Assembly (NCBI GenBank): GCA_943350765.1
Contig: CALRAJ010000003.1
Coordinates: 1,456 to 65,455 of the forward strand
Direction: 5' to 3'
Length of the DNA stretch: 64,000 bases
Source of the DNA: Candidatus Tayloriibacteriota bacterium
GTDB lineage: Bacteria; Patescibacteriota; Minisyncoccia; Phycocordibacterales; PALSA-1337
The translations under genes were made by a program, and so were the position numbers. Below are positions 5,294 through 62,853 of the stretch, one piece after another. Within the stretch, counting starts at the first letter, position 1. Each line of letters opens with the position of its first letter. A model generated the notes under the pieces. It was not told the origin of the DNA and ran no database searches. It saw nothing but the letters and a program-made list of their open reading frames with translations.

Positions 5294-5499
5294 ATTTAAA
5301 AATCTCCCAAATTCATTTGGGAGATTTTTAAATTGGTGCGGCTAGAGCAAGCCGACTGCTCGGCTTGCGTTTGGAATCGAACAGCGGAGCCATGTTTTTC
5401 TACCAAGAAAAACGGGCGAGCTGGTGCCCAGACTTTTCCGAGCGACGGCGAGGAAAAAGTCGCGGGCGATAAATGTACCCATGGTCCAACTAGCCGCAA
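5294..5499 (+). repeat. tRNA-linked composite element, type II core (follows tRNA-Lys)
   Basis: 42-nt palindromic hairpin; inverted copy TGGTGCGGCTAG-[CUGC-loop hairpin]-TTGGAATCGAAC of the tRNA-Lys 3' end; core ..GGTGCCCAGAC-hairpin-AGTCGCGGGCGATAAATGTACCCATGGTC; direct copy CCAACTAGCCGCA. Confidence 0.6.
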
Positions 5500-10565: not shown

Positions 10566-10860
10566 GCAGAGGAACGAAGTGAATAAGGAATGGGTGAGTT
10601 CGAACTGGAAGGGGGTCGGGGAAAATGGCGTTTCCCCGTGGAGGAAAACAACGAGTACTCGAGTGTTAGAAACCGTGGGTTTCTAAAACGCAGGCTACTG
10701 CCGAGCAGTGAGGTTCTCACCCCATCCGCCTTCGGTCCGCCGGAGCAGACCTACGGCGTGACGCAGTCCGCCAGTGGGTTTGCATAGGCGACCTTCGCCA
10801 TACTGAAGCATGGCTACGGCGTAAAAAAGTCCGCAGTAATTATGCGTCGACTTTCGCTAG
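10566..10860 (+). repeat. tRNA-linked composite element, type I core (follows tRNA-Ser)
   Basis: inverted T-arm copy GGAATGGGTGAGTTCGAAC 10586-10604; core GGGGGTCGGGGAAAATGGCGTTTCCCCGTGGAGGAAAACAACGAGTACTCGAGTGTTAGAAACCGTGGGTTTCTAAA; direct copy CTCACCCCATCCGCC 10716-10730; tail CCGCCTTCGGTCCGC..GCGTGACGCAGTCCGC also found at 60160-60240. Confidence 0.6.
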
Positions 10861-18663: not shown

Positions 18664-19027
18664 AATAAACCTGTAAGGGTTTTTTGTGCAACCTCGGTTG
18701 GAATCGAACCGGAAAGGGGTCGGGGAACGGGAGTTCCCCGTGGAGGAAAACAACGAGTACTCGAGTGTTAGAAACCGTGGGTTTCTAAAGAGCCCGACAC
18801 ACGGAGGGCGAGTGAGATAGCGAAGCGCCCAACCGAGGGCACAAAAAAATGCGGAGCACTTTTTGTGCCCTCGAGCAGGCAAACTGCTTTGCCTGCGGGT
18901 CGGAATCGAACAGCGGAGTCATGTTTTTATACCAAGAAAAACAGGCGAGCTGGTGCCCAGACCAAAGTTTTTGACGAAAAACTTTGAGTCGCGGGCGATA
19001 AATGTACTCATGGTCCAACCGAGGGTT
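18664..19027 (+). repeat. tRNA-linked composite elements: type I core then type II core in tandem (follow tRNA-Arg-TCT)
   Basis: inverted copy CAACCTCGGTTGGAATCGAACC 18689-18710; type I core 18715-18792; direct copy CCCAACCGAGGGCACA 18828-18843; inverted TGTGCCCTCG-[CUGC hairpin]-GGTCGGAATCGAAC 18863-18910; type II core ..GGTGCCCAGACC-hairpin-AGTCGCGGGCGATAAATGTACTCATGGTC; direct copy CAACCGAGGG 19015-19026. Confidence 0.6.
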
Positions 19028-30408: not shown

Positions 30409-30537
30409 TGGCATGGTTAGAGAGAATCGGACGACGGAGCGGGGTACCCACATAACAATGTGGGTCGCGAGTCGGTGCCCAGACCGAGGCGAGTGGCGAC
30501 GAGCCTTGAGTCGCGGGAGATTCTCTCTAGCCACCCC
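30409..30537 (+). repeat. tRNA-linked composite element, type II core (follows tRNA-His)
   Basis: terminator hairpin GACAAACGCGGAGCGTTTGTC; inverted copy TGGCATGGTTAGAGAGAATCGGAC; GACGGAG; hairpin ACCCACATAACAATGTGGGT; GTCGGTGCCCAGACC; hairpin CGAGGCGAGTGGCGACGAGCCTTG; AGTCGCGGG; direct copy AGATTCTCTCTAGCCACCCC. Confidence 0.6.
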
Positions 30538-31992: not shown

Positions 31993-32051
31993 GAAATACA
32001 CCCGAAATTTTCAGTAGAAAATTTCGGGTGTATTTCAACGGCTCAACAGGC
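31993..32051 (+). repeat. TCAGTAGA-loop hairpin followed by AACGGCTCAACAGGC half-palindrome
   Basis: GAAATACACCCGAAATTTTCAGTAGAAAATTTCGGGTGTATTTC, a 19-bp stem. Confidence 0.55.
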
Positions 32052-36270: not shown

Positions 36271-36871
36271 ATGCTTTCAAAAAAAACGCACAAGGTGTCC
36301 ATTATGTCAGTCATTGAATACAGTAAAAAATGGTAGTGGAGATCATGGCCAAAGATACAGATGTAATGATTGTAACAAGAGGTTTAGGTTGAAAGATTAC
36401 AAGAAAGAAAAAGAATCTGAATATATATGGAACGAATTTGTGTTTGCAAAGCAAACACTCAGAGAGTTGTCAGAAATATTTTCATACACTAAAAAACAAC
36501 TCCAAAGAATCTTTGATGGTATACAAATCACACAAAAGATTCACACCCCACGAGCACTACACCTCGTAGTTGATGCCACCTACTTTGGAATGAAGGAAAC
36601 TAGGCTTTGGGGAGTACTAGTTTTTCGAGATCAAACCAACAAAGAGAATCTATGGTGGCAATTCATAGATGAAGAAAGAATACACTACTACAGAGAAGGT
36701 AGAGACTACCTTCTCTCTCTGGGGTATACAATACTATCTGTCACCTGTGATGGATTCAGTGGCTTACCTGAGCTATTTTCACCCATTCCTGTACAGTTCT
36801 GTCACTTTCACCAAGCCCAGATCGTGAGAAGGTATACAACACTTAATCCGAGTTTTTTGCTCAGTTGCTGA
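36271..36871 (+). pseudogene. IS1-family transposase remnant (InsA-like zinc finger plus InsB-like DDE region), frameshifted at an A8 tract and C-terminally truncated
   Basis: with one A removed from the A8 tract (36279-36286) the ORF reads MLSKKRTRCPLCQSLNTVKNGSGDHGQRYRCNDCNKRF, matching the IS1 InsA CPxC..VRNG..QRYxCxxC finger; downstream VVDATYFG and TCDGFSGLP align with IS1 InsB D residues; the ORF stops where the third catalytic residue is expected, and the GC-rich segment begins there. Confidence 0.6.
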
Positions 36872-37545
36872 CTACCGTCAAACCTGGCCAGATGGATCAT
36901 AAACGGATGCAGGCTGCGATTAAGGACCCCCAGCTCACCGAGCGCATGTATGCGTTCGTTAATGGTTACGAGGTTGCGCCACTGCAGGTGGTTATCCCTC
37001 CAGTCGTGGAGCTGGCAACTTTTATCCCCCTCCACCTCTCGATCCCGCTCGCCACTCACAAGGCCCGCTCGATGTCGGAGCTTTTCCGCAATCGTGGCAA
37101 GGTCATCTTCTACTACCGCGATGGCGACCTCGACGGTTGGTTCACCGCGAACTCCCCACAGTGCCCAGCTGGCACCGCCTCCCTCGTCAAAACCCCCAGG
37201 GCAATGACGTTCCGGCAGATGGCGCAGTCGGCCACTGGACTCCAGTCTGAGTCCCTCGCCGACCTCTCCCGTGCCATTGTCACCAAAGGCCTCGACATCG
37301 TCCCCACCCAATGGGACGACGCTATCGGCGCCACTCAGAACGGCACGGATCTTCTCCTCGTCAACGGCTATGCCAACTTCGCTTTTACGAAGACAGACAA
37401 GAAGCTCAAAGATGAGAATCAACAGGTAGTCGTGCTCTGCGCCCGCCGCGACGACGACGGCCGGTGGGGCGCCGGCGTCTGCGGGCTCGACAACGACGAC
37501 GAGTGGAACGCCGACTACAGGCTTCTCCTCCGCAACTCGCCCTAG
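36865..37545 (+). CDS. DGR target (variable) protein; C-terminal 35 codons encoded by VR
   Basis: GC-rich (about 60%) ORF; its 3' 106 bp is the A-mutagenised homologue of the TR; C-terminus ..LCARRDDDGRWGAGVCGLDNDDEWNADYRLLLRNSP; start uncertain (TTG 36865 or ATG 36892). Confidence 0.7.
   Translation: MLTTVKPGQMDHKRMQAAIKDPQLTERMYAFVNGYEVAPLQVVIPPVVELATFIPLHLSIPLATHKARSMSELFRNRGKVIFYYRDGDLDGWFTANSPQCPAGTASLVKTPRAMTFRQMAQSATGLQSESLADLSRAIVTKGLDIVPTQWDDAIGATQNGTDLLLVNGYANFAFTKTDKKLKDENQQVVVLCARRDDDGRWGAGVCGLDNDDEWNADYRLLLRNSP
37433..37538 (+). repeat. DGR variable repeat (VR)
   Basis: 106-bp ungapped alignment to TR 37788-37893 with 16 mismatches, 14 at TR adenines (11 A>G, 1 A>C, 2 A>T); identical 3' IMH-like GGCTTCTCCTCCGCAACTC, then palindrome GCCCTAGGGC. 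Confidence 0.85.
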
Positions 37546-37603: not shown

Positions 37604-37787
37604 ATAAAATTTGATATACTGCCATTTAGGATTTGCTGACATACTCGGCGTAAGCTTGGTATGGCGAGTCCTGCAACATTCAAAAAAGAAATAGTTGGTG
37701 CCTCACTCTGGTGAGAAAAAGTCTCAAAATACTATTCAGCCCCAAGAGAATTCAAAGGGTGTTGTAATAGATGGAGCGAGGTACAAA

Positions 37788-37893
37788 TGCTCTACGCCAA
37801 CCGCAACGACGACGGCCAGTGGAATGCGAACGTCAACAGGCTCGACAACGACAACGAGTGGAACGCCGACAACAGGCTTCTCCTCCGCAACTC
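37788..37893 (+). repeat. DGR template repeat (TR)
   Basis: AAC/AAT-rich in the VR reading frame (MLYANRNDDGQWNANVNRLDNDNEWNADNRLLLRN); followed by hairpin CTCCCGCTTACTGCGGGAG plus T-run. Confidence 0.85.
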
Positions 37894-37908: not shown

Positions 37909-38253
37909 TTACTGCGGGAGTTTTTGTTCTATGGAATAGATCCAGCCATGAAGCATCTTTCCGGCAGCGACCAATTTTTCATTTAGTAAGATAAACTTCT
38001 TGTCCTCGAATATGTTCATCTCCCAGCCAACAGATAAGAAGAATTTGATCAGATCCAAGTGCTCCTGAGCAGCCTTTATTAGAAGTATTTTTTGTTCGCC
38101 ACTACAATAGGTGGCCTGGTAAATTGACCTCAATGCCTCGGTGAAATAATCTTCAATTTTTGAAGCAATGCCAAATCGTACTGGTTTCGGTAAATTTTCG
38201 CTGTATGTAAACCATAGAGAATATGTTTCTTTCAGGTGTTGTAGCACTGGCAA
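37909..38253 (-). CDS. avd: Avd-like accessory variability determinant (four-helix-bundle, 23S rRNA IVS protein family)
   Basis: 114 aa, TTG start; LPKPVRFGIASKIEDYF.. and LLIKAAQEHLDLIKFFLSVGW helices match the Avd/IVS four-helix-bundle pattern; minus strand, divergent from the RT. Confidence 0.65.
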   Translation of the reverse strand: MPVLQHLKETYSLWFTYSENLPKPVRFGIASKIEDYFTEALRSIYQATYCSGEQKILLIKAAQEHLDLIKFFLSVGWEMNIFEDKKFILLNEKLVAAGKMLHGWIYSIEQKLPQ

Positions 38254-38261
38254 AATCGTGC

Positions 38262-38271
38262 GGGGGGGGGG
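38262..38271. repeat. G10 homopolymeric tract in the avd/RT divergent intergenic spacer
   Basis: CGGGGGGGGGGT, 14 nt upstream of the RT ATG, 9 nt from the avd start. Confidence 0.8.
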
Positions 38272-38284
38272 TAGACTTTGTAGT

Positions 38285-39319
38285 ATGGCTCGGATTCAAC
38301 TGATTCATACCTATCAGCATATCATTTCTGTTGAAAATTTGCTTTCAGCGTTGAGAGAATTTACCAAGGGCAAAAAGCAGAAAAAAGATGTCCAACAATT
38401 CTCACTTCGTCTGATGGATAATATTTTGAAACTCCATCGAGATCTTGCGGATAGAACTTATGTACATGGAGATTATCACGCTTTCAATATTTCCGATCCA
38501 AAGCCACGCAATATTCACAAAGCACTGGTGCGAGACAGACTGGTACATCACGCTATATACAGAGTGTTGTGCCCCTTTTTTGACCGTACTTTCATCAGTG
38601 ATTCGTATTCGTGTCGTCTGTATAAAGGCACACATCGAGCACTGAATCGGTTTAGGGATTTTGGACAAAAAGTTTCAAAAAATAACACACGCACCTGTTG
38701 GGTTTTGAAATGTGATGTGAGGAAGTTTTTTGCTTCTATTGACCACGGCGTCTTGTTCGCTATTCTAGAGCAGTATATTCCAGATAAAGATATCCTATGG
38801 CTACTCACTCGAGTGATCGATAGTTTCCATTCTACCCGTTTTGGTGTCGGACTTCCTCTCGGCAATCTCACATCACAGCTTCTAGTGAATATTTATATGA
38901 ACGAGTTTGACCAGTATATGAAGCATCGGCTTAAGGCCAAACACTATATTCGATATGCTGACGATTTTGTTATTTTGAGTAATGATAAAAAACGGCTCGA
39001 AAATATTTTGATAGAAATTAGTGACTTTTTGCAAGTAAAGCTTCGCCTGAATCTTCATCCAGACAAAGTGTTCATAAAAACATTTGCATCAGGTGTAGAT
39101 TTCCTTGGCTGGGTACACTTTTCTGACCATAGGGTACTGAGGACTTCCACCAAGAAAAGAATGTTTAAACGATTGGCTGAGGGAGAGGTATCGGAGACGA
39201 CCATCCTTTCGTATTTAGGCATGCTGAGTCATGGTAATGGGATGGGGTTGCAAGAGATGATTACTGGGCTGTCAGGATTGAATTTGGCTGGCGGAGGTAT
39301 GAGTGATAGTAAAACTTAA
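38285..39319 (+). CDS. DGR reverse transcriptase
   Basis: RT motifs 1-2 PKPRNIHKALVRDRLVHHAIYRVL, A WVLKCDVRKFFASIDH, B' GLPLGNLTSQLLVNIYMNEFD (SQ in place of group II SP, the DGR hallmark), C YIRYADDFVIL, D LRLNLHPDK, E GVDFLGW; start taken at ATG 38285 (MARIQL) rather than the ORF-track start 38168. Confidence 0.85.
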   Translation: MARIQLIHTYQHIISVENLLSALREFTKGKKQKKDVQQFSLRLMDNILKLHRDLADRTYVHGDYHAFNISDPKPRNIHKALVRDRLVHHAIYRVLCPFFDRTFISDSYSCRLYKGTHRALNRFRDFGQKVSKNNTRTCWVLKCDVRKFFASIDHGVLFAILEQYIPDKDILWLLTRVIDSFHSTRFGVGLPLGNLTSQLLVNIYMNEFDQYMKHRLKAKHYIRYADDFVILSNDKKRLENILIEISDFLQVKLRLNLHPDKVFIKTFASGVDFLGWVHFSDHRVLRTSTKKRMFKRLAEGEVSETTILSYLGMLSHGNGMGLQEMITGLSGLNLAGGGMSDSKT

Positions 39320-51690: not shown

Positions 51691-51741
51691 ACAATTTTTA
51701 CTAAAATTGTTCGCCCGAACATTTTTCTACTGAAAAATGTT
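51691..51741 (-). repeat. two hairpins after rplK, the second with TCTACTGA (rc TCAGTAGA) loop
   Basis: ACAATTTTTACTAAAATTGT and AACATTTTTCTACTGAAAAATGTT. Confidence 0.5.
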
Positions 51742-52508: not shown

Positions 52509-53021
52509 TCATCGAGCTAGGTCTAGCCATTTATACTTTAATCCAGTTTTTTCATCTATTTTATCTTCTCGAAATGTCTCTTTAGTAAACTCTGGATATA
52601 GCGGAAAGAAAACATCTCCAGAGGCATCACTTTCTACGAGAGTAAGGTAGAGTTTTTGAGTAAAAGGTAATCCTTGGGCGTATATTTCTCCACCGCCGAT
52701 CAGAAAGATCTCTGGGTCATTTGGATTATTTTTGGTTTCTATCCCCCAAGCTTTTTCTATGGCTTCTTCAATATTTAGAACTACAAATGCGTCTGGAGCG
52801 GTAAAGCTTTTATTTCTGGTAACGACAAAATTACTACGGTTTGGTAAGGCTTTGCCTATGGACTGATAGGTTTTTCTTCCTAAAATTACCGCATGCCCCG
52901 ATGTGATTTGTTTGAAGCGTTTTAAATCATCAGAAATACGAAACAGAAGATGTGCCCCGTTTCCAATACAGCCGTTCTTTTTTGTAATAGCTACCACAAT
53001 ACTTATTTTGGGTTTTGTCAT
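52509..53021 (-). CDS. folA: dihydrofolate reductase
   Basis: ISIVVAITKKNGCIGNG..LLFRISDDLKRFKQITSGHAVILGRKTY DHFR signature. Confidence 0.85.
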   Translation of the reverse strand: MTKPKISIVVAITKKNGCIGNGAHLLFRISDDLKRFKQITSGHAVILGRKTYQSIGKALPNRSNFVVTRNKSFTAPDAFVVLNIEEAIEKAWGIETKNNPNDPEIFLIGGGEIYAQGLPFTQKLYLTLVESDASGDVFFPLYPEFTKETFREDKIDEKTGLKYKWLDLAR

Positions 53022-53071
53022 GTTGTTTTTGTTTCCGTAAGGCATATACTGATAGTATAGCATTTTCAACT

Positions 53072-53192
53072 CCAAACTTCGTTGAAGGCGTATCTTTTAA
53101 ATGGACTTCGGAGGTGGGTAACCGAGACTTGAGAGATTTTCTACCAAGAAAATACTCGTGCCATTTAAAAGATGTGCCGAGAAAGAAGTTTG
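53072..53192 (-). mobile_element. MITE-like element family B copy (inverted orientation)
   Basis: TIRs CCAAACTTCGTTGAAGGCGTATCTTTT / AAAAGATGTGCCGAGAAAGAAGTTTGG; core is the reverse complement of the 51022-51144 copy. Confidence 0.6.
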
Positions 53193-53224
53193 GAATTGAA
53201 AATGTACCCTTTTAATAAAACAAC

Positions 53225-53905
53225 ATGTCCCACAGCTATGAAATCGAAATAAAAAGTCTGCTCGGCTCAAAAGAAAATGCCGACAAGCTCAAGCATGCTC
53301 TTTTGCAAAAAGACCCAAGTATGTCCTTGGTGGGTAAGGGCAAGCAACTCAATCATTATTTTAATACTCCAGCTGATCTTTCAAAATTGGAAAAAGTAGT
53401 CATGCCGATTATTGAAAAAAGTAAGATTGATTCGCTCAAGAAAATTGTCGCAGAAGGTAAAAAAGTTTCTATTCGTACTCGTGATGCTGATGGTAAAGTA
53501 CTTTTTGTTATCAAAGCTTCAATAAGTGATGATAGTAGTGCCAACGGAGTTTCGCGTATAGAGTTTGAGTCTATCGTCAAACTTTCACTCGGAAAGCTTG
53601 ACCAAGTGCTTTTAGATGCGGGCCTGACCTATCAAGCAAAGTGGTCTCGTGAGCGTGAGGAGTATCAGGTCGGAGATATGCATGTCTGCCTCGATAAGAA
53701 TGCTGGCTATGGCTACCTTGCCGAGTTTGAAAAAGTGCTTTCTTCGGCAGGAGAGGCAGAAAAAGCCAAGACAGACCTGCTCGCGTTTATGAAAAGTGTC
53801 GGTGTTATCGAGCTAGACCAAGCAAGGCTCGAGCGAATGTTTGCTCACTATAATGCTCATTGGGCGGAGTATTATGGGACAGATAATATTTTCGATATAC
53901 AGTAA
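53225..53905 (+). CDS. CYTH-domain protein (triphosphate tunnel metalloenzyme)
   Basis: N-terminal YEIEIKSLL (ExExK motif) and acidic downstream motifs. Confidence 0.65.
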   Translation: MSHSYEIEIKSLLGSKENADKLKHALLQKDPSMSLVGKGKQLNHYFNTPADLSKLEKVVMPIIEKSKIDSLKKIVAEGKKVSIRTRDADGKVLFVIKASISDDSSANGVSRIEFESIVKLSLGKLDQVLLDAGLTYQAKWSREREEYQVGDMHVCLDKNAGYGYLAEFEKVLSSAGEAEKAKTDLLAFMKSVGVIELDQARLERMFAHYNAHWAEYYGTDNIFDIQ

Positions 53906-53921
53906 TAATTATAATAACTTT

Positions 53922-54491
53922 ATGTTTCTATCAGATATAGATATCAAAAAAGGACTAGAAAGTGGTGCTATCGTCATAAAGCCTTTTGATGAGAAAAAAC
54001 TTCAGCTGGCAAGTTATGATGTGACACTCGGAAACGAATTTGAGGTAACTAATCGTTTTAGTACCACTTTTGTTGATCCTGTAAATAAGATATACCCATC
54101 AACTCAAACAATAAAAGTTGCTGATGGAAATCAGTTCGTGTTGCATCCAGGAGAGACTGTTCTAGGAAAACAAAAGGAGTTTGTCGGTGTCGATCACAAA
54201 CATCTCATGCTTTTGTCTGGTAAAAGTAGTCTCGCTCGTGCAGGACTTGTTGTTCATAATACAGCTATGCTTTTTAATCCAGGGCATCATTTCTACCCCA
54301 CATTTGAGCTTTTAAATACGAGTTCTGTACCCATCATTTTACGTCCTGGAATGCCTGTAGCCCAACTTTTGTTTGCTGAACTAAAGACTGAGTCGGGTAA
54401 AACATATCATGGAAAAATGGGTGTCGGGCGGTTTGATCATAAGAACTCCGATCATTTTGCAGAACCAAAAGTAAAAGGGAAAAATAAATAA
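53922..54491 (+). CDS. dcd: dCTP deaminase
   Basis: dUTPase-fold; ..[27 protein letters not shown].. and C-terminal motif. Confidence 0.85.
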
Positions 54492-54543
54492 ACGAGCGTC
54501 GCGCTTTAATGGACGATTGCGCGACATAATTTCGCAAAATTAC

Positions 54544-55569
54544 ATGAAAAATAAAACCACTTCAAAAACTGCAAAACAACCTAAAATAGAGCGACATCCA
54601 GAATATCAGTATCTCGATCTACTCGCGGATATTATGAAAAACGGTTTTGAAAAGCACGAGTTCAATACGGGCATTGCTATTAAAAGTGTGTTTGGTAGAA
54701 GCATGCGTTATGACCTCTCCAAAGGTTTCCCACTTTTGACCACTAAAAAAGTTTTCTTACGGGGTATCATCCACGAGCTTTTGTGGTTTCTAAAAGGTGA
54801 TATCAATATTAAATATCTGGTGGACAACGATGTGCACATCTGGGATGACTGGCCATACAAAGAGTATAAAAAGAAGATGGAAAAAGGTGAAGTGCCAAAT
54901 CTCACCATTGATGAATTTATCAAAAAGATAAAAGATGATCCTGATTATGCAAAAAAGTGGGGTAATCTTGGCCCCGTATATGGTAGGCAATGGCGCAAAT
55001 GGCCTGCTGCGGACGGTAGAGAGATAGACCAGCTCGCTTGGGCGATAGAAAAGAGTAAAAAGTACCCAGACAGAAAGCATGTGGTTATTTCAGCGTGGAA
55101 TCCCGAGTATGTCTACGAGATGGCTTTGCCGGGTACTTCAATGGCTATTCCACCGTGCCATACACTTTTTAATCTCAATGTGACCAACGGCAAACTTTCT
55201 CTTGCTCTCTATCAGCGCAGTGCGGACTCATTTCTTGGTGTACCTTTTAATATTGCGAGTTATGCACTACTTACAATGATTTTGGCTCAGGTGTGCGGGT
55301 ATAAGGTAGGGGAGTTTGTGCATTTTTTGGGTGATACGCACATTTACGGTAACCACTATGAGCAAGTCAAAGAGCAAATGAAACGAAAACCGCGACCGTT
55401 TCCGACGATGAAAATCAATCCAGCTCGGAAAAATATTGACGATTTCGTATTTGAGGACTTTACTATAGAAAATTACGACCCGCATCCACCGATAAAAGGC
55501 GAGATCACTGCTGTAGGCGGTTTTAATGAAAAAGACCGCAAGGATTTTACGATGAAGAAAAATAAATAG
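54544..55569 (+). CDS. thyA: thymidylate synthase (ThyA) with insertion
   Basis: [16 protein letters not shown], catalytic Cys in [28 protein letters not shown]. Confidence 0.9.
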
Positions 55570-55595
55570 TGTGTAAATGATAATTTTAAATTTCC

Positions 55596-56819
55596 ATGAA
55601 AGATACCCAAATCAAAAAACTCATCGAGTCTGAAAAAAAGCGTCAAAAAAAGGTGATCAACCTCATCGCCTCAGAAAATGTGGTATCAAAGGATGTGCTC
55701 AAAGCCCTTGGTTCCGAGCTGACTAATAAGTATGCGGAAGGGTATCCAGGTAAACGGTATTATGGAGGTAATGAAGTGGTAGATGAGCTAGAATCTCTCG
55801 CCCAGACTCGGGCACTACGACTTTTTGGACTTTCTCCTGATCTCTGGCATGTCAATGTCCAGCCACTTTCTGGCTCTCCAGCCAATCTCGCGGTGTATTT
55901 GGCACTTGTCCCTATTGGCGGGAAAATTATGGGCATGTCTCTCGACAACGGGGGACATTTGACTCATGGACACAAAGTTTCTATGACTGGCAAGGCTTGG
56001 GTACAGGTGCCGTTTGGGGTGGATCCAAAAACAGAAGTGATCGACTACGATAGTCTGAAACAAAAAGCGGTTGCTGAAAAGCCAGCTATCATTGTCGCTG
56101 GATTTACTGCCTATCCTCGCACCGTAGATTTTAAAAAGTTTAGAGAAGTGGCTGATGCTTGTGGCCCCGACTCTCCGGTCGGGACAGGCGCGATACTGAT
56201 GGTAGACATGTCACATTTTGCAGGGCTTGTGGCGGGCAAGGCTTACCCAAGTCCATTCGAATATGCCGATGTGGTGACGACTACTGTGCACAAGACCTTG
56301 CGTGGTCCTCGCTCAGCACTTATTTTTGTACGAAAGGATAAGACAAAGCTAAATACAAAAGGCGTCCCAGTGTCTTTTGCCGACCTCATAGACAAAGCTG
56401 TTTTCCCGGGACTTCAGGGTGGCCCACATTTAAATCAAATCGCAGCTGTAGCAGTGGCACTTAAAGAGGCGTCTACCCCGGCGTTTAAAAAGTATGCACA
56501 GCAAGTGGTAAAAAATGCCAAAGTTTTGGCTGACGAGCTCACGAAAAAGGGTTGGAGGATTGTTTCTGGAGGGACCGACTCTCATTTAGTACTTATCGAC
56601 ACATGGATGGGTGGCAAGGGTATTGGTGGAAAGGAGGCTAGTGACCGTCTCGAGAAGGCAGGTATTATTGTGAATAAAAATACGATTCCTGGAGAGACTC
56701 GTACACCGGTAGATCCGTCTGGTATAAGGGTGGGTTCTGCTGCCGAGACGACTCGTGGTAAAAAAGAGAAGGATTTTCGGAAGGTTGCAGAGAATATTGA
56801 TAAGGTTTTGAGTGCTTAA
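55596..56819 (+). CDS. glyA: serine hydroxymethyltransferase
   Basis: PLP-lysine motif VTTTVHKTLRGPRSALIF; full-length SHMT. Confidence 0.95.
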   Translation: MKDTQIKKLIESEKKRQKKVINLIASENVVSKDVLKALGSELTNKYAEGYPGKRYYGGNEVVDELESLAQTRALRLFGLSPDLWHVNVQPLSGSPANLAVYLALVPIGGKIMGMSLDNGGHLTHGHKVSMTGKAWVQVPFGVDPKTEVIDYDSLKQKAVAEKPAIIVAGFTAYPRTVDFKKFREVADACGPDSPVGTGAILMVDMSHFAGLVAGKAYPSPFEYADVVTTTVHKTLRGPRSALIFVRKDKTKLNTKGVPVSFADLIDKAVFPGLQGGPHLNQIAAVAVALKEASTPAFKKYAQQVVKNAKVLADELTKKGWRIVSGGTDSHLVLIDTWMGGKGIGGKEASDRLEKAGIIVNKNTIPGETRTPVDPSGIRVGSAAETTRGKKEKDFRKVAENIDKVLSA

Positions 56820-56856
56820 TTGGTACTTACGGTAATGATATGTTATAATAAATTAA

Positions 56857-57312
56857 ATGGATAAAATAAAGATATTTAAGTATTTGTCGCGAGCACAAAG
56901 TGTTTTTATTGCAATTTTATCTTTTGGATATCTAACTTTGTTTTTTCTGCCATTTGTTAGTTCTGAGCTTGATGATCGCCTTGGCGAAACCAAATTTGTA
57001 ATCTTTGCTGTATTAGGAGTAGGCTGTATACTGCTTATTGTTTTGAGGGCATTTATTTATCACTTTAGAAAACAGATTGCCATAACCGACGAGACAGAGA
57101 TTAAAAAAGTCTTGAGTTCTAATGAGCCGATTTTTAAAGTGGGGATATTTTTAGCACTTATCTTTCTATTAGTCTTTTTTTCTTGGCTCGGATTGTTTGC
57201 TTTATCAGCTACCGACGGCAGACCCTCAGGTATTATTTTTGCCATAATATTTTATGGAGGTATATTGCTAGTGATTGTTACGTCCATTGTTCGTTTGTTT
57301 AAGAAGAAGTAA
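56857..57312 (+). CDS. hypothetical membrane protein
   Basis: 151 aa, 4 TM segments. Confidence 0.3.
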   Translation: MDKIKIFKYLSRAQSVFIAILSFGYLTLFFLPFVSSELDDRLGETKFVIFAVLGVGCILLIVLRAFIYHFRKQIAITDETEIKKVLSSNEPIFKVGIFLALIFLLVFFSWLGLFALSATDGRPSGIIFAIIFYGGILLVIVTSIVRLFKKK

Positions 57313-57382
57313 GAAATTCTATTTTATTAAAAACAGTCATTGATAAAAACTAGAAAATAGCCTCGAGTAGGGGCGTAGTTTG

Positions 57383-57454
57383 GCGGAAAGGCTCGACGGG
57401 TGACCAGTGAGCCGTTGAACCTGTTTCCCCCGATTTTCAGTAGAAAATCGGGGG
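57383..57454 (+). repeat. imperfect palindrome plus TCAGTAGA-loop hairpin
   Basis: GGCGGAAAGGCTCGACGGG..GAGCCGTTGAACC then CCCCCGATTTTCAGTAGAAAATCGGGGG. Confidence 0.5.
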
Positions 57455-57547
57455 ACTGACTGAGTACTCGGTACTTTCGACTTTTGAACTGCTCCCATTC
57501 TTAATTCCTAAATCTGGCTTCTACTCAAAATATGCTATAGTACTATT

Positions 57548-59245
57548 ATGATTTCAGACCAGATACAAAAGGCAGTACAGAGTGCTGTGGCAGAGCTTGG
57601 TATGCAAGCTGGTGAGGTAGTTCTCGAGCACCCAGGCGAGCTTTCTCGCGGTGACTATGCGACCAATGTGGCGATGGCTCTAGCTAAAAAGGCAGTGGTC
57701 AAGCCAAAGGATCTTGCTGAGAAAATTGCGACAGCTATCCGTGCTCAAAACATCCCAGAAATTGCCAAAGTAGAAGTCGCTGGTCCGGGCTTTATCAACT
57801 TTTACCTCTCACAAACTTTTCTCGTCTCTGAAATAGCTAAAATCGTATCTCTCGGCGGGCAGTACGGTCTCAATAAAACCCTCGCAGGTAAGACGGTGAT
57901 GCTCGAATACACTAGTCCCAATCTTTTCAAACCACTTCATATCGGCAACCTAGTAGGTAATATTCTGGGAGAATCACTATCTCGATTACTTATCGCTAGT
58001 GGAGCCGAAGTCAAAAGAATCAACTACCCTTCTGATATAGGACTGACGGTAGCAAAAGGTGTGTGGGGACTTCAGAAAACGGGCGGTAATCCAAAAGATA
58101 TCAAGGCTCTCGGCGAAGCGTATCGAGTGGGTAACACTGCGTATGACGAAGCTGGTGATGAGAAAAAAGAAATTGAGGTGATCAACAAAGCACTCTACGA
58201 GTATTCAAATCCGACACTGACTACTTTGCGAAAAGATGGTATTGCGACATCGCTTCTGCATCTCGAGATGCTTTGTAAAAAGCTTGGTACAAAGTTCGAT
58301 ACACAGTTTTTCGAAAGTCAGTCTGCTCTGCTCGGTCGAGATATTGTACTTGCTAATATCACTAATGGTATTTTTGAAAAGAGTGACGGTGCTGTCATAT
58401 ACAAGGGCGAGGTAGATGGACTTCATACCCGAGTATTCCTCAACTCTCATGGCCTCCCGACCTACGAAGCAAAGGAGGTGGGACTCTTTAAACTCAAAAG
58501 TGAGGCGTATCCAAACTTCGACATCTCGATAACCGTTACTGGTAATGAGCAACTAGACTTTTTCAGGGTAGTGTTTTCAGCGATTAAAAAAGTATTTAAG
58601 GAGGAGACTAAGGGGAAGGTCTTGCGTCATGTACCAAACGGCTTTTTGACCCTCACGACAGGCAAGATGTCTTCTCGAAAGGGTAATGTGATTACGGGCG
58701 AATCACTCATCGAGACTGTACAGGAAATGGTGCGAGAAAAAGTCAAAGACCGAGGATTTGATGTGTCTACCACAGAAATAGTCGCAGAGTCGGTGGCTAT
58801 TGGTGCGATAAAGTATTCTATTCTTCGTCAGCAGATGGGAAGTAATATTATCTTTGATTTCGAAAAGTCCCTGTCTTTTGAGGGTGATTCTGGTCCATAT
58901 TTGCAATACACGACCGTGCGCGCAAGAACCGTTCTTGCGAAAGCGAAAATAGTAGGACTTGTGCCGTCGACAAAAAATAGTCCAAAGTCGATAGGCGATC
59001 TAGAGCGGGTCATCTATCGTTTTCCTGAGGTGCTGGAGAGAGCAACCCACGACTATGCACCACATCTTCTTGTGACTTTTGCTGTTGAGCTTTCAGCCAC
59101 ATTTAATGCGTTCTATGCCAATCAAACCATTATTGACGGAAAGGATCCTGATTCACTATATCGTCTTGCAATCACCTCGGCGGTAGCGTCAGTACTTGAG
59201 CAGTGCCTCTATGTACTCGCCATTCCTTTGCCCGAGAAGATGTAG
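57548..59245 (+). CDS. argS: arginine--tRNA ligase
   Basis: class I HIGN motif PLHIGNLVGNILGE, ArgRS N-terminal domain, C-terminal DALR anticodon-binding region (PYLQYTTVRARTVLAKA). Confidence 0.9.
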   Translation: MISDQIQKAVQSAVAELGMQAGEVVLEHPGELSRGDYATNVAMALAKKAVVKPKDLAEKIATAIRAQNIPEIAKVEVAGPGFINFYLSQTFLVSEIAKIVSLGGQYGLNKTLAGKTVMLEYTSPNLFKPLHIGNLVGNILGESLSRLLIASGAEVKRINYPSDIGLTVAKGVWGLQKTGGNPKDIKALGEAYRVGNTAYDEAGDEKKEIEVINKALYEYSNPTLTTLRKDGIATSLLHLEMLCKKLGTKFDTQFFESQSALLGRDIVLANITNGIFEKSDGAVIYKGEVDGLHTRVFLNSHGLPTYEAKEVGLFKLKSEAYPNFDISITVTGNEQLDFFRVVFSAIKKVFKEETKGKVLRHVPNGFLTLTTGKMSSRKGNVITGESLIETVQEMVREKVKDRGFDVSTTEIVAESVAIGAIKYSILRQQMGSNIIFDFEKSLSFEGDSGPYLQYTTVRARTVLAKAKIVGLVPSTKNSPKSIGDLERVIYRFPEVLERATHDYAPHLLVTFAVELSATFNAFYANQTIIDGKDPDSLYRLAITSAVASVLEQCLYVLAIPLPEKM

Positions 59246-59304
59246 AGCGAAGCAGTATTACAAGCTGATTGTAAATGGGTATAAAAAATGATACTATCTT
59301 AAGT

Positions 59305-59595
59305 ATGTCAAATAACACACTGTCACTTAGTCTCCCCGTACAAATCATAAAGCAAAACAAGCGTTTTGTGGCATATACTCCTGCACTCGATATTTCTACT
59401 TCAGGAAAAACTGAAAAAGAGGCACAAGCTCGTTTTGTTGAAATGGCGGAAATATTTTTCGAAGAAATTATTGAGGCGGGGACAGCTTCTGATGTACTTT
59501 CTGAACTTGGTTGGAAAATAGCTCAGAAAAAGTGGACTCCACCACAAATAATTTCTTCCCAGCCAGTCGGCTTTTGTATACCAACTTTTGTATAA
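59305..59595 (+). CDS. hicB: HicB-family antitoxin
   Basis: RFVAYTPALDISTSGKTEKEAQARFVEMAEIFFEE matches the HicB/UPF0150 RNase H-like fold pattern; directly upstream of hicA. Confidence 0.6.
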   Translation: MSNNTLSLSLPVQIIKQNKRFVAYTPALDISTSGKTEKEAQARFVEMAEIFFEEIIEAGTASDVLSELGWKIAQKKWTPPQIISSQPVGFCIPTFV

Positions 59596-59596
59596 T

Positions 59597-59824
59597 ATGC
59601 CTCGCATTCAGTCTATCCACTGGCGAGATTTTGAGAAGTTTCTTCTGAATATTGGATGTGAGTTTAAAAGACAGAAAGGCGATCATCGGGTGTATTGGAA
59701 AAAGGGTATCAAAAGACCGGTGGTTATTCCGCAGGATGCCTCCTTGCCCGCGTTCATTATTCTGAATAATTTGCGAGTACTCGGTATATCACGCGAGGAG
59801 TATTTGAAAAGTGTCGAAAAGTAG
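59597..59824 (+). CDS. hicA: HicA-family mRNA interferase toxin
   Basis: FEKFLLNIGCEFKRQKGDHRVYWKKG..VVIPQD matches the HicA/YcfA dsRBD-like motif. Confidence 0.7.
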   Translation: MPRIQSIHWRDFEKFLLNIGCEFKRQKGDHRVYWKKGIKRPVVIPQDASLPAFIILNNLRVLGISREEYLKSVEK

Positions 59825-59895
59825 AGAGTGCCAGACATCTTTCAAAACAGTGGGGCAGTGTGCTAGTATGGGAAACGACATCGTGCAATAATATT

Positions 59896-59984
59896 GGAGA
59901 GATGGATGAGTGGCTTAAATCAACGGTTTACTAAACCGTCGTTCCCTAACAGGAACCGTGGGTTCGAATCCCACTCTCTCCGCA
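59896..59984 (+). tRNA. type II tRNA (Ser-like) with unusual anticodon loop TTACTAA (nominal anticodon ACT)
   Basis: acceptor GGAGAGA/TCTCTCC, 3-bp D-stem, anticodon stem ACGGT/ACCGT, long variable arm CGTTCCCTAACAGGAAC, T-arm GTGGGTTCGAATCCCAC. Confidence 0.65.
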
Positions 59985-60024
59985 AACGGCCCAAAAAGAA
60001 AGAAGTTCTTTTTGGGTAGCCGTT

Positions 60025-60360
60025 GCGCGAGAGAGTGGGATTCGAACGCCGGAACTCATAATTTTCAGTAGAAAATTTAGTGAGGCGGTGCCCAGACAAA
60101 TTTTTTCGACGGAAAAAATTTAGTCGCGGGCGAAAAACGTACTCGTGGTCTCGCTCTCTCCGCCTTCGGTCCGCAGTAGCTTGGCTTCGGAGTGACACAG
60201 TCCGCAGAAGATGAGCGAAGGCGGGAAGGGGATTCGAAGCCAGATTGAGTATTTTTTCGATTTTGTAATCAAATGAAGAAAAAATCCAATCGGGGTACTG
60301 AAACTGTAAGTTTCGAAAAGCGTACTCGTGGTCTCGCTCTCTTTTCGATACTGCCATTGA
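60025..60360 (+). repeat. tRNA-linked composite element, type II core (follows the type II tRNA), with additional partial duplication
   Basis: terminator hairpin 59986-60024; inverted copy GCGCGAGAGAGTGGGATTCGAAC; hairpin CTCATAATTTTCAGTAGAAAATTTAGTGAG; GCGGTGCCCAGAC; hairpin AAATTTTTTCGACGGAAAAAATTT; AGTCGCGGGCGAAAAACGTACTCGTGGTC; direct copy TCGCTCTCTCCGCC; second direct copy at 60322-60350. Confidence 0.6.
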
Positions 60361-60450
60361 AACAAAGGTACCTGGTCCATTTATCCACCTAAACAGGTTC
60401 CAACAGCGTACCAAACTACCCGCAAAGTTTTAATGTGATATAATTTCTAT

Positions 60451-60852
60451 ATGGATTTCGAAAGACTATTCGCTGAAGCCTCAAGGATTAATGCTTCAAG
60501 AAAACTATCTTCTACGGCCAACTGCGGTGGTGTAGGCTCCGCTTTAATAACTGCAAAAGGGAAAATATATACAGGAATATGTATTGATACATACTGTGGA
60601 TTAGGATTTTGTGCGGAACATTCTGCGATTGCTGAAATGCTTAAAAATGGAGAATCAGAAATTAAGGAAATACTTGCTGTTAAGGAAAGTTTTGATAATG
60701 CAGTCATATCACCTTGTGGCAGATGTCGAGAACCAATACTACAAATTGATCCAAAAAATAAAAATACGATTGCCTACATCTCTTACGACAAGGCGGTAAA
60801 ACTTTCTGAACTTTTACCCGAACACTGGATGGAGGGATACAAAAAGACTTAA
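60451..60852 (+). CDS. cdd: cytidine/deoxycytidylate deaminase-family zinc enzyme (Cdd-like)
   Basis: zinc ligand motifs CAEHSAI and PCGRCRE. Confidence 0.75.
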   Translation: MDFERLFAEASRINASRKLSSTANCGGVGSALITAKGKIYTGICIDTYCGLGFCAEHSAIAEMLKNGESEIKEILAVKESFDNAVISPCGRCREPILQIDPKNKNTIAYISYDKAVKLSELLPEHWMEGYKKT

Positions 60853-60923
60853 ATATCCTTATTCCGCAAAAAACCAGTTCCAACTGCTTACTAAAATACT
60901 CGCCAAAAACAAGAATTAAACGG

Positions 60924-60940
60924 ACAATGAGGTCAGCCAC
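60924..60940 (+). repeat. 17-bp direct repeat ACAATGAGGTCAGCCAC, copy 1
   Basis: identical to 61572-61588; together they flank ORF 61016-61561. Confidence 0.7.
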
Positions 60941-61015
60941 CACTTGCCCGAACATATTATCAAAAATAATTATGGCTGACCTTATTATCATTATTACAGT
61001 TGATAAACTACTAAA

Positions 61016-61561
61016 ATGAAACCACAATTATTTATTATTACAGGGGTAAATGGTATTGGGAAAAGTTGTATTATTCCTAAACTGAGAGACCATCTCAATT
61101 CTATAAATTTTGTAGTACACGACTTCGATGAGCGCGGAGTTCCTGATAATGCTGATAGTGAGTGGCGAAAATCTGAGATAAAACATTGGTTTACAATTGC
61201 GGAGCAAAATATAAGTAAAAAATTGTCTACGGTTGTGTGTGGTTTTATGAAAATGAGCGATATCAAGCATGCTTTGGAAAATGGCTATAGTATAAAAGTA
61301 AGTGTCTGTGTGCTAGATGCCTCTCCAGAAACTATTTCTAGTAGAATCTTAAGTCGTTATCTCACTCCTGAAAGTCTTATAGAACTTAAGCGTACTACTG
61401 GTAAAACTCCCGAAAAGTTTGTGAGTGATAATGTATGGGTAGCCTCAAAATTCCGTGAAGAAGCAAAAGAAAATGCCTACTACCTACTTGATACAAATGA
61501 ACAAAGGCCAGATAAAGTCGCTACAAGCGTCATCGCATGGATTAATACACAAAATATATGA
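61016..61561 (+). CDS. P-loop kinase-like protein (AAA_33/zeta-toxin-like nucleotide kinase fold)
   Basis: Walker A ITGVNGIGKS near the N-terminus; 181 aa. Confidence 0.5.
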   Translation: MKPQLFIITGVNGIGKSCIIPKLRDHLNSINFVVHDFDERGVPDNADSEWRKSEIKHWFTIAEQNISKKLSTVVCGFMKMSDIKHALENGYSIKVSVCVLDASPETISSRILSRYLTPESLIELKRTTGKTPEKFVSDNVWVASKFREEAKENAYYLLDTNEQRPDKVATSVIAWINTQNI

Positions 61562-61571
61562 ATACAATGAT

Positions 61572-61588
61572 ACAATGAGGTCAGCCAC
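61572..61588 (+). repeat. 17-bp direct repeat ACAATGAGGTCAGCCAC, copy 2
   Basis: identical to 60924-60940. Confidence 0.7.
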
Positions 61589-61705
61589 AATTCTTTTTGA
61601 TAATATGTTCGGGGGAACGGTGGCTAACCTTACTAATTTTTCAGTAGAAAATTTAGTAAGGCGCTGCCCAGACCAAAGTTTTTGACGAAAAACTTTGAAT
61701 ATCGG
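61589..61705 (+). repeat. orphan type II composite element (no tRNA)
   Basis: inverted partial copy GGTGGCTAACC of the preceding GGTCAGCCAC; hairpin CTTACTAATTTTTCAGTAGAAAATTTAGTAAG; GCGCTGCCCAGACC; hairpin CAAAGTTTTTGACGAAAAACTTTG identical to that in 18965-18988. Confidence 0.55.
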
Positions 61706-61751
61706 GAGAAATTCTTACTCACTTATCCATAAATAGAATTAACGTAAACCT

Positions 61752-62300
61752 ATGGGAAACAAAGACATTACATTCATAACAGGCAATCAGAAAAAGGCGG
61801 ACTATCTCAATAAGTATCTTGGTTTTCCGGTTAAGCATATAAAACTCGAGCTCGACGAAATACAATCTCTTGATTTGAAAGATATTGTCGAGCACAAAGT
61901 CCGACAGGCGTATGACAAGATTAGAACCCCAGTCATAGTGGAGGATGTTTCTCTGGAATTTGAAGCTTTAAAAGGTCTGCCTGGGCCATTTATACGATTC
62001 TTTGTAGACAGTGTACCTTTTGAGACCATCTGCTCGATGGTTAATGGTAAGACTCGTAGAGCAACAGCAAAGTGTGTTTTTGGTTATTACGATGGAGAGA
62101 CATTAAAACTACTTGAAGGTAGTCTTGGTGGCGAAATTGCAGAAACTCCTATGGGCGAGAATGGTTATGGGTGGGATAAACTCTTTATTCCTGATGGATA
62201 CAAAGTTACTCGAGCACAACTTAGTGAAGAAGATGACCAGAAGACCTATGTGCAGATAAAGCCGTTTGCAGCACTGAAAGAATTTTTAACTTATCGATAA
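61752..62300 (+). CDS. rdgB: non-canonical purine NTP pyrophosphatase (RdgB/HAM1)
   Basis: ITFITGNQKK N-terminus and the conserved FGYD-like motif of ITPases. Confidence 0.85.
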   Translation: MGNKDITFITGNQKKADYLNKYLGFPVKHIKLELDEIQSLDLKDIVEHKVRQAYDKIRTPVIVEDVSLEFEALKGLPGPFIRFFVDSVPFETICSMVNGKTRRATAKCVFGYYDGETLKLLEGSLGGEIAETPMGENGYGWDKLFIPDGYKVTRAQLSEEDDQKTYVQIKPFAALKEFLTYR

Positions 62301-62304
62301 ACCT

Positions 62305-62853
62305 ATGTCCATAAAAATAACCTATTTTGTACACGGCACAACCACAGACAACGAGAAAGAAATTTCATCGGGCTGGTTTGATGTCGAACTTTCTGAAAAG
62401 GGAATAAAACAGGCGATTGATTTAAGGGAAAAAACGAAGGATCAGAAATTTGATGTAGTCTTTTGTTCTGATTTAAAACGCGCGGTGAAGTCGGCGGAAT
62501 TAGCTTGGAACGGGATCTATACAATTATCCCTGACAAAAGACTTCGAGAATGTAATTATGGTAAGCTTAACGCCGCCCCATCTTCAATTGTCGAACCGAT
62601 GCAAGAGGAAGAATGTATTAAGAATAAGTTTCCAGAAGGGGAGAGTTATGAAGATGTAAAAGCTCGCATAGCAGATTTTCTTGAATTTCTAAAAAAGAAC
62701 TATAACGGAAAAAGTGTTGCAATTGTTGCACACAAAGCTCCGCAACTTTCGCTAGATGTTTTGATCAAAGGCAAGACTTGGAAACAAGCCCTTGCGGATG
62801 ATTGGAGAAAAACAAAGTCTTGGAAACCAGGGTGGGAGTATATTTTAGATTAA
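62305..62853 (+). CDS. histidine phosphatase superfamily (phosphoglycerate mutase-like) protein
   Basis: ITYFVHGTTTDNE (RHG-like motif with V for R) and a downstream catalytic His region. Confidence 0.6.
   Translation: MSIKITYFVHGTTTDNEKEISSGWFDVELSEKGIKQAIDLREKTKDQKFDVVFCSDLKRAVKSAELAWNGIYTIIPDKRLRECNYGKLNAAPSSIVEPMQEEECIKNKFPEGESYEDVKARIADFLEFLKKNYNGKSVAIVAHKAPQLSLDVLIKGKTWKQALADDWRKTKSWKPGWEYILD

Follow-up and report, generated by a model that had tools for sequence, protein, structure and literature searches.

In the 64,000-nucleotide stretch of DNA analyzed here (the window), an open reading frame (ORF) resembling a P-loop kinase lies between two copies of a 17-mer and is followed by an isolated type II element, a member of a family whose other copies in the window stand after tRNA genes. 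This arrangement raises the question of how the gene and the element came to lie where they do. A first-pass annotation had proposed that the 17-mer takes the place of a tRNA 3' end, and that the element, possibly together with the kinase gene, was inserted by a site-specific mechanism recognizing this short motif. We tentatively favor another reading, in which the locus is the scar of a palindrome-mediated gene translocation and not a tRNA-surrogate insertion site.

A pattern scan of the window placed the exact 17-mer, ACAATGAGGTCAGCCAC, at 60924-60940 and 61572-61588, so that both copies bracket the ORF at 61016-61561, as the annotation had stated. A third match, with three mismatches, was found on the minus strand at 60972-60988, and three matches were reached by 0 of 100 shuffled sequences. 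Repeat search and folding revealed that the 17-mer is merely the 5' arm of an imperfect palindrome of approximately 65 nt, which is present twice:

60924-60988, palindrome A: 5' arm 60924-60940 (17-mer copy 1), loop 60941-60971, 3' arm 60972-60988.
61572-61636, palindrome B: 5' arm 61572-61588 (17-mer copy 2), loop 61589-61619, 3' arm 61620-61636.

Rather than simple direct repeats, the two 17-mers are thus arms of a 57-nt inverted repeat (60930-60986 against 61574-61630, 86% complementary), which was also recovered as a 65-nt local alignment. Palindrome A folds with -21.8 kcal/mol (z -5.3) and palindrome B with -23.2 kcal/mol (z -3.9), and both hairpins are stable on both strands; the arms of A are complementary at 14 of 17 positions. 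The loop of B is the reverse complement of the loop of A: a 20-mer, CCCGAACATATTATCAAAAA, lies on the plus strand in A and on the minus strand in B, and the 31-nt loops match at 26/31 positions when inverted as against 8/31 when compared directly. The arms, in contrast, are slightly more alike in direct (30/34) than in inverted (26/34) orientation. Since the loops match only as reverse complements, the hairpin repeats on either side of the ORF are, taken as a whole, in inverted orientation. The 17-bp "direct repeat" is a consequence of the near-palindromic nature of each hairpin and of the identity of the 5' arm in both copies; it is one arm of a hairpin-forming repeat that has its centre turned round from one copy to the other. 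Likewise, the inverted partial copy of the 17-mer (GGTGGCTAACC) that the annotation had placed immediately after copy 2 is present there, but is separated from it by the 31-nt loop. Small flip-flop inversions of hairpin loops between stem arms occur in plastid non-coding DNA and at parvoviral termini; copies A and B similarly share the orientation of their arms and differ in that of the loop, but here the two states occupy two gene-flanking loci and are not alleles of one locus. No target-site duplication was seen at the outer ends of the hairpins, where the flanks ...TTAAACGG and TTTTTCAG... differ. An 8-mer, CTTACTAA, was considered in this role and rejected, as it does not adjoin the left hairpin.

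The enclosed gene, which stands alone at this locus, and the sequence preceding it are as follows:

61016-61561, plus strand: P-loop NMP-kinase-like ORF of 181 aa (from the ORF list, with weak family matches).
60996-61015, plus strand: CAGTTGATAAACTACTAAA before the ATG, a remnant of the ancestral sequence upstream of the kinase gene (alignment A2), common to the related loci L170 and L172, where it forms the end of another gene.

The ORF is present as annotated, and its matches to kinases are weak: AAA_18, Zeta_toxin, AAA_33 and guanylate kinase were all sub-threshold, no curated kinase family exceeded its cut-off, and matches to PDB entries had E values of at least 0.13. On these sequence matches, "kinase" is a plausible label. 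The homologues come from Patescibacteria/Paceibacteria metagenomes, and the four closest are 88% (L170), 84% (L172), 81% (L003) and 75% (L005) identical. In all four, a second AAA_18/AAA_33 kinase gene follows the first directly, head-to-tail and with no spacer, forming multi-kinase operons, and the kinase gene often overlaps the gene upstream of it. The 17-mer and the loop motif are absent from all four loci; relatives thus carry the kinase gene with no such repeats, a result that speaks against the insertion proposed by the annotation. As separate observations, in L003 the second kinase gene is fused to NUDIX, and a tRNA-Ser(cga) bearing a variant type II element precedes the pair by approximately 100 nt.

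Alignment of the flanks with the relatives' operons showed that about 21 nt of ancestral sequence have been kept before the ATG and ~7 nt past the stop codon. Hairpin A lies 26 nt upstream of the start codon and hairpin B 10 nt downstream of the stop, and the homology to the operons breaks off only a few bases away from the inner end of each. Because this homology stops at the inner ends of the hairpins, the ORF looks translocated, with the hairpins at the joints. With a GC content of 0.359, the gene lies lower than each of the 36 larger ORFs (mean 0.423, sd 0.032), which over a 546-bp gene is weak evidence for translocation. In view of these minimal ancestral flanks, the breakpoints at the hairpins and the lowest GC content, the description of the unit as cassette-like was a fair one. 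The region 52509-62853 is rich in genes of nucleotide and folate metabolism (DHFR, CYTH, dCTP deaminase, ThyA, SHMT, cdd, the kinase, RdgB and histidine phosphatase), and a nucleotide kinase is functionally at home in this neighborhood. As the kinase, cdd, RdgB and phosphatase are functionally coherent in nucleotide metabolism, the kinase gene could also be a long-standing resident kept by selection.

The core motif of the type II family was found five times in the window: after tRNA-Lys, tRNA-Arg(tct), tRNA-His and tRNA-Ser(act), and at 61660. Membership in the family is defined here by alignment A1 and by covariance model R1, which was built on the 63 intact elements of A1 and with which the window was scanned with filters off. 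The elements referred to below are:

5370-5478, 18899-19010, 30420-30532 and 60035-60145: intact, tRNA-linked type II elements; the metagenomic loci L050-L129 also carry the family.
60035-60145, plus strand: the type II element of tRNA-Ser (tRNA at 59896-59983), 99.8 bits, serving as the reference copy for the orphan.
61616-61727, plus strand: degenerate, 5'-truncated type II element (the orphan), with hp1 at 61628-61661, core GGCGCTGCCCAGAC at 61660-61673, hp2 at 61674-61697 and a decayed 3' module, AATATCGGGAGAAATTCTTACTCACTTATCC.

Model R1 gave the four intact copies 102, 99.8, 97.3 and 94.3 bits and matched the orphan at 61616-61721 with 39.5 bits (E about 1e-8); nothing else in the window scored above 11.3 bits. 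The match at 61616-61721 shows the orphan to be a real homologue of the type II family, though a damaged one. The annotation was therefore right to recognize a type II element here, but what it called a full core is degenerate and 5'-truncated, at 39.5 as against 94-102 bits. The hp1 and hp2 hairpins are present at their fixed positions; hp1 is near-identical to that of the Ser copy (in an alignment beginning at 61633), hp2 is identical to that of the Arg copy (a 34-nt exact match), and the orphan as a whole is 80% identical to 60062-60144 over 83 nt. Its similarity to the intact copies starts only at about 61633, and the sequence 5' of this point is hairpin B. This 5' portion does not resemble its counterpart in canonical elements (z = 0.2), so that the possibility of hairpin B being a diverged version of that counterpart was rejected; neither hairpin is related to any part of a canonical type II element.

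Damage is seen in every helix outside hp1 and hp2. The P2 helix of the family (CRSC/GSYG around GGAG-hp1-GAG) is not formed, as the GGA and the 5' strand of P2 are missing and the P2 pairs are non-canonical. In P3, CCC:GGG has been kept and GAC:GTC lost, and P1 is absent, there being neither a complementary closing strand 3' of the core nor a third copy of the 17-mer at the 3' end. The family core reads GGTGCCCAGAC ... AGTCGCGGGMGA, with an invariance in A1 that is owed partly to the search pattern, whereas the orphan has GCGCTGCCCAGAC and AATATCGGGAGA. No co-oriented tRNA ends 77-166 nt upstream of the orphan, the nearest being tRNA-Ser at a distance of 1.6 kb. This lack of a tRNA is unusual: among the 80 metagenomic loci, lower-scoring variants (27-61 bits, some of them 46-52) are still tRNA-linked. 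A likeness of the orphan's hp1 to the anticodon arm of tRNA-Ser was also considered and rejected as being at chance level.

Between tRNA-Ser and the kinase gene lies cdd, which is flanked by a 36-nt direct repeat (60391-60426 and 60871-60906, 78% identity). The second copy is:

60871-60906, plus strand: D2-2, a diverged duplicate (78%) of the motif upstream of the cdd promoter; it has no -10 box and stops just before palindrome A.

The first copy is conserved upstream of cdd in L185, with TGATATAAT 17 nt downstream of it; it is the native promoter region of cdd, and the repeats were for this reason rejected as remnants of an element or as a second cassette boundary. Homologues of RdgB (82-88% identity) and of cdd (83-86%) have different neighborhoods, so that the cdd/rdgB synteny is not conserved in the nearest relatives and there is no empty site with which to compare the locus. 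Both relatives carrying cdd have a tRNA-Ser with a variant type II element ~1.5 kb upstream of it. The region downstream of tRNA-Ser is a variable zone in this lineage.

The sequence of events that we tentatively favor would begin in a multi-kinase operon, from which one P-loop kinase ORF would have been excised together with very little adjoining sequence. The ORF would then have come to lie in the variable region downstream of tRNA-Ser, between two ~65-nt hairpin copies with inverted centres. The type II element of tRNA-Ser would earlier have given rise to a duplicate that had no tRNA; the right-hand hairpin would have taken the place of the 5' part of this duplicate, which would have decayed since, losing P1 and suffering damage to P2 and P3. 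The hairpins would represent the recombination joints, formed either in a composite resembling a foldback or MITE pair or by template switching at a palindrome, two routes that look alike at this locus, and probably no dedicated site-specific enzyme would be needed. On the present mRNA the hairpins would act at most as stabilizing or insulating stem-loops. A translocation of the ORF with the hairpins as joints is consistent with four observations: the tight bracketing, the breakpoints of homology at the hairpins, the truncation of the type II element exactly at hairpin B, and the low GC content. Against it stand the lack of a target-site duplication and the number of hairpin copies, two being insufficient to demonstrate a mobile family; furthermore, the direction and order of events are deduced with no empty-site genome having been found.

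One alternative, which we consider unlikely, is that the hairpins are locally duplicated stem-loops acting at the RNA level, as transcript boundaries or in stabilization or processing, with no mobility of the DNA; their loops or 57-nt arms could then pair across the kinase mRNA. Such a role would be in keeping with the stable folding on both strands, with the closeness of the hairpins to the start (26 nt) and stop (10 nt) codons, and with a T5 run downstream of hairpin B. An intrinsic-terminator scan, however, called neither hairpin; the loop is 31 nt long, and no T-tract directly follows the stem. Moreover, duplication of an RNA-level signal leaves unexplained why the hairpins are precisely the points at which homology to the ancestral operon is lost and why the type II element is truncated at hairpin B.

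An additional scenario is that the hairpins belong to a genome-wide palindromic family of the MITE or REP type, of which two copies landed beside the kinase gene or mobilized it as a composite. The repeats are indeed extragenic, palindromic, ~65 nt long and arranged as an inverted pair, and the window contains a fragment of an IS256-family transposase. Only two copies were found in ~84 kb, however: neither the window nor 20 kb of additional flanking DNA of the same genome contains a further one, and no relative of the hairpin was detected in ~1 Mb of related loci. A scan of the GTDB representative genomes (the host genome is not among them) with the hairpin palindrome gave 38 chance matches in unrelated taxa, the two in Patescibacteria both lying within coding regions, and viral contigs scanned with the hairpin arm and loop likewise gave chance matches only; a homologue of the hairpin was found in none of the collections searched. 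The further copies of the repeat and the cognate recombinase that the first-pass annotation had proposed to look for were both missing, the former from the same ~84 kb of genome and ~1 Mb of related loci, the latter from a Pfam scan of the 41 window ORFs of at least 180 aa, in which no integrase, resolvase or RAYT was found.

The transposase fragment, a 185-aa ORF at 36314-36871, matches the N-terminal 183 of 304 positions of an IS256-family Zn-binding variant transposase (158 bits, above cut-off) and is probably a truncated IS; it lacks the 17-mer. A reverse transcriptase (RVT_1) at 38168-39319, whose best NCBIfam match is a below-cut-off group II RT/maturase, adjoins a 115-nt direct repeat pair (37424-37538 and 37779-37893, 83% identity), and together they most likely represent a diversity-generating retroelement. 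Neither the reverse transcriptase nor the IS256-like fragment has any linkage to the hairpins.

MITE pairs are known to flank captured genes, forming composite units bounded by inverted MITE or foldback repeats. The locus resembles these composites in that one gene, parted from its usual neighbors, lies tightly between inverted copies of a short, hairpin-capable, non-coding repeat, and the 57-nt, 86% complementary ends correspond to the terminal inverted repeats of a MITE. It differs from them in having two known copies, no target-site duplication, no parent IS with matching ends, and arms that are more alike in direct than in inverted orientation. REPs, in turn, are 20-40 nt long, occur in tens to hundreds of copies and are accompanied by a RAYT gene (a Y1 transposase). 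The hairpins share with REPs and BIMEs the character of imperfect palindromes in intergenic DNA beside gene ends, but differ in their two copies per 84 kb, their 31-nt loop and the lack of a RAYT. Considering all of this, we regard membership of such a genome-wide family as distinctly improbable.

The orphan and the annotation's proposal have to be judged against the intact type II elements. A scan of metagenomes with an exact pattern yielded at least 120 loci with a type II core, and the same pattern was not found in viral contigs. In 57 of 82 metagenomic cores a co-oriented tRNA ends 77-166 nt upstream; most of the others lie at contig edges or after tRNA-like 3' ends uncalled by ARAGORN, and at least 25 tRNA anticodon types precede the cores. 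In alignment A1 the helices P1, P2, hp1, P3 and hp2 are supported by 90% paired cells, compared to 70% in shuffles, and for P2 the paired share rises to 99%; covariation reaches a score of 0.52, compared to 0.18 for shuffled alignments (0 of 500 reached 0.52) and 0.07-0.13 for slid controls. P1 is composed of an inverted copy of the tRNA T-loop and T-stem together with a direct copy, which begins at about T-loop position 56 and in most cases runs precisely to the final base of the tRNA. With intact elements, the tRNA segment from position 56 to discriminator 73 is present three times: once within the tRNA itself, once inverted on the 5' side of the core, and once in direct orientation, closing the element. 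A single long hairpin extends from the T-loop of the tRNA to the inverted copy; of the 21 bases at the tRNA 3' end, a median of 19 are paired in it, and its apex is often a bidirectional terminator. Rfam gave no type II match at gathering thresholds or at E values up to 10, and no description of the element was found in a literature and motif search.

Several further observations were made on these and neighboring elements. In L051, L077 and L084, type II elements follow T-arm-plus-acceptor-like 3' ends uncalled by ARAGORN, which may belong to tmRNA or to atypical tRNAs. For the tRNA-Ser of the window (59896-59983) ARAGORN gave the anticodon ACT (A34), an uncommon one in bacteria; the metagenomic locus L125 shows this anticodon as well, likewise with a type II element after it. 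A second kind of tRNA-linked element ("type I"-like) occurs at 18685-18843 and 60160-60342, and also at 10726-10836; it is bounded by tRNA-3'-end-like sequence, ends with CGAAAAGCGTACTCGTGGTC plus a tRNA strand, and has homologous pieces in L076, L115, L123 and other loci. Stand-alone hairpins at 32008-32023, 51721-51736 (minus strand) and 57434-57449, one of them within the argS leader, have the apex TTTTCAGTAGAAAA in common with type II hp1, on lower stems that are different and compensating.

The strong covariation speaks for folding as a single strand, whether of RNA or of attC-like single-stranded DNA. The plus strand folds better by 4.8 kcal/mol on average (66 of 78 cases), and the counts of G-U and A-C (70 versus 48) are mildly biased and ambiguous as a strand indicator; the bidirectional apex terminators would fit convergent transcription of the minus strand. 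The data are compatible with type II elements being tRNA-mimicking RNAs with an acceptor-like end copied from the neighboring tRNA, and also with a miniature integrative element targeted to the T-loop. With the tRNA mimics (the tRNA-like domain of tmRNA, viral TLS, bacterial YrlA) the intact elements share a closing helix made of the acceptor/T-stem strand up to the discriminator; they differ in having no Rfam match, in that each copy mimics its own neighboring tRNA, and in the ambiguity of the strand. Williams is said to have set out in 2002 a classification that includes T-loop-class tRNA integration sites. The intact elements resemble such sites in their direct repeat from the T-loop to the tRNA 3' end, but they span only about 150-230 nt, have no integrase, and contain a conserved covarying core and an inverted tRNA copy. 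A more far-reaching idea, to which we attach very little likelihood, is that intact type II elements are substrates of an undescribed Patescibacteria insertion system that targets the tRNA T-loop, through a folded single-stranded DNA hairpin (as in integrons or CTX) or an RNA guide, with the palindrome-bounded kinase gene as a rare piece of captured cargo; equally speculatively, the inverted and direct C56-N73 copies would then let the folded single strand rebuild the target duplex.

The insertion put forward in the first-pass annotation, of the type II element alone or with the kinase gene at a short motif replacing the tRNA 3' end, appears highly unlikely in the light of these comparisons. 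On the surface the layouts correspond (X, spacer, inverted X, hp1, core, hp2), and in intact elements the 3' end of the preceding tRNA is indeed repeated in inverted form. In these elements, however, the repeat from T-loop C56 to the discriminator recurs as the P1 closing strand, and the degenerate orphan has no closing copy. The 17-mer has no similarity to a T-loop or acceptor, and the stretch pairing with it sits inside the core, at the position of P2/GGAG/the base of hp1, and not at the anti-tRNA position; neither the 17-mer nor the orphan shares any of the tRNA-derived features that relate intact elements to T-loop-class sites. Furthermore, the repeats flank the kinase gene and not the element, and even the lower-scoring variants in the 80 metagenomic loci are tied to tRNAs. 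The role of the 17-mer as a tRNA-end surrogate, and the site-specific mechanism built on it, found no support.

An integron-like gene cassette with the hairpins as attC-like single-strand recombination sites can be all but dismissed, since, although the ORF is packed with minimal flanks between ~65-nt structured imperfect palindromes and the neighboring cdd is also repeat-flanked, the arms have no R''/R' core sites (RYYYAAC/GTTRRRY), the loops are oppositely oriented whereas the attC sites of one array share one orientation, the window has no integrase (IntI) gene, and the cdd repeat is the native cdd promoter region.

Under the translocation reading, the locus would be a small rearrangement scar, an instance of the shuffling of single genes within the fluid stretch that follows a tRNA gene in a reduced genome of the Patescibacteria. 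The kind of event, in which a repeat-bounded translocated gene comes to lie beside a decayed copy of a repeat, is already known. The main value of the locus is as a pointer to the type II family, whose structured cores of ~110 nt are more interesting than the locus itself and merit a study of their own, be they RNA, mobile DNA, or both.
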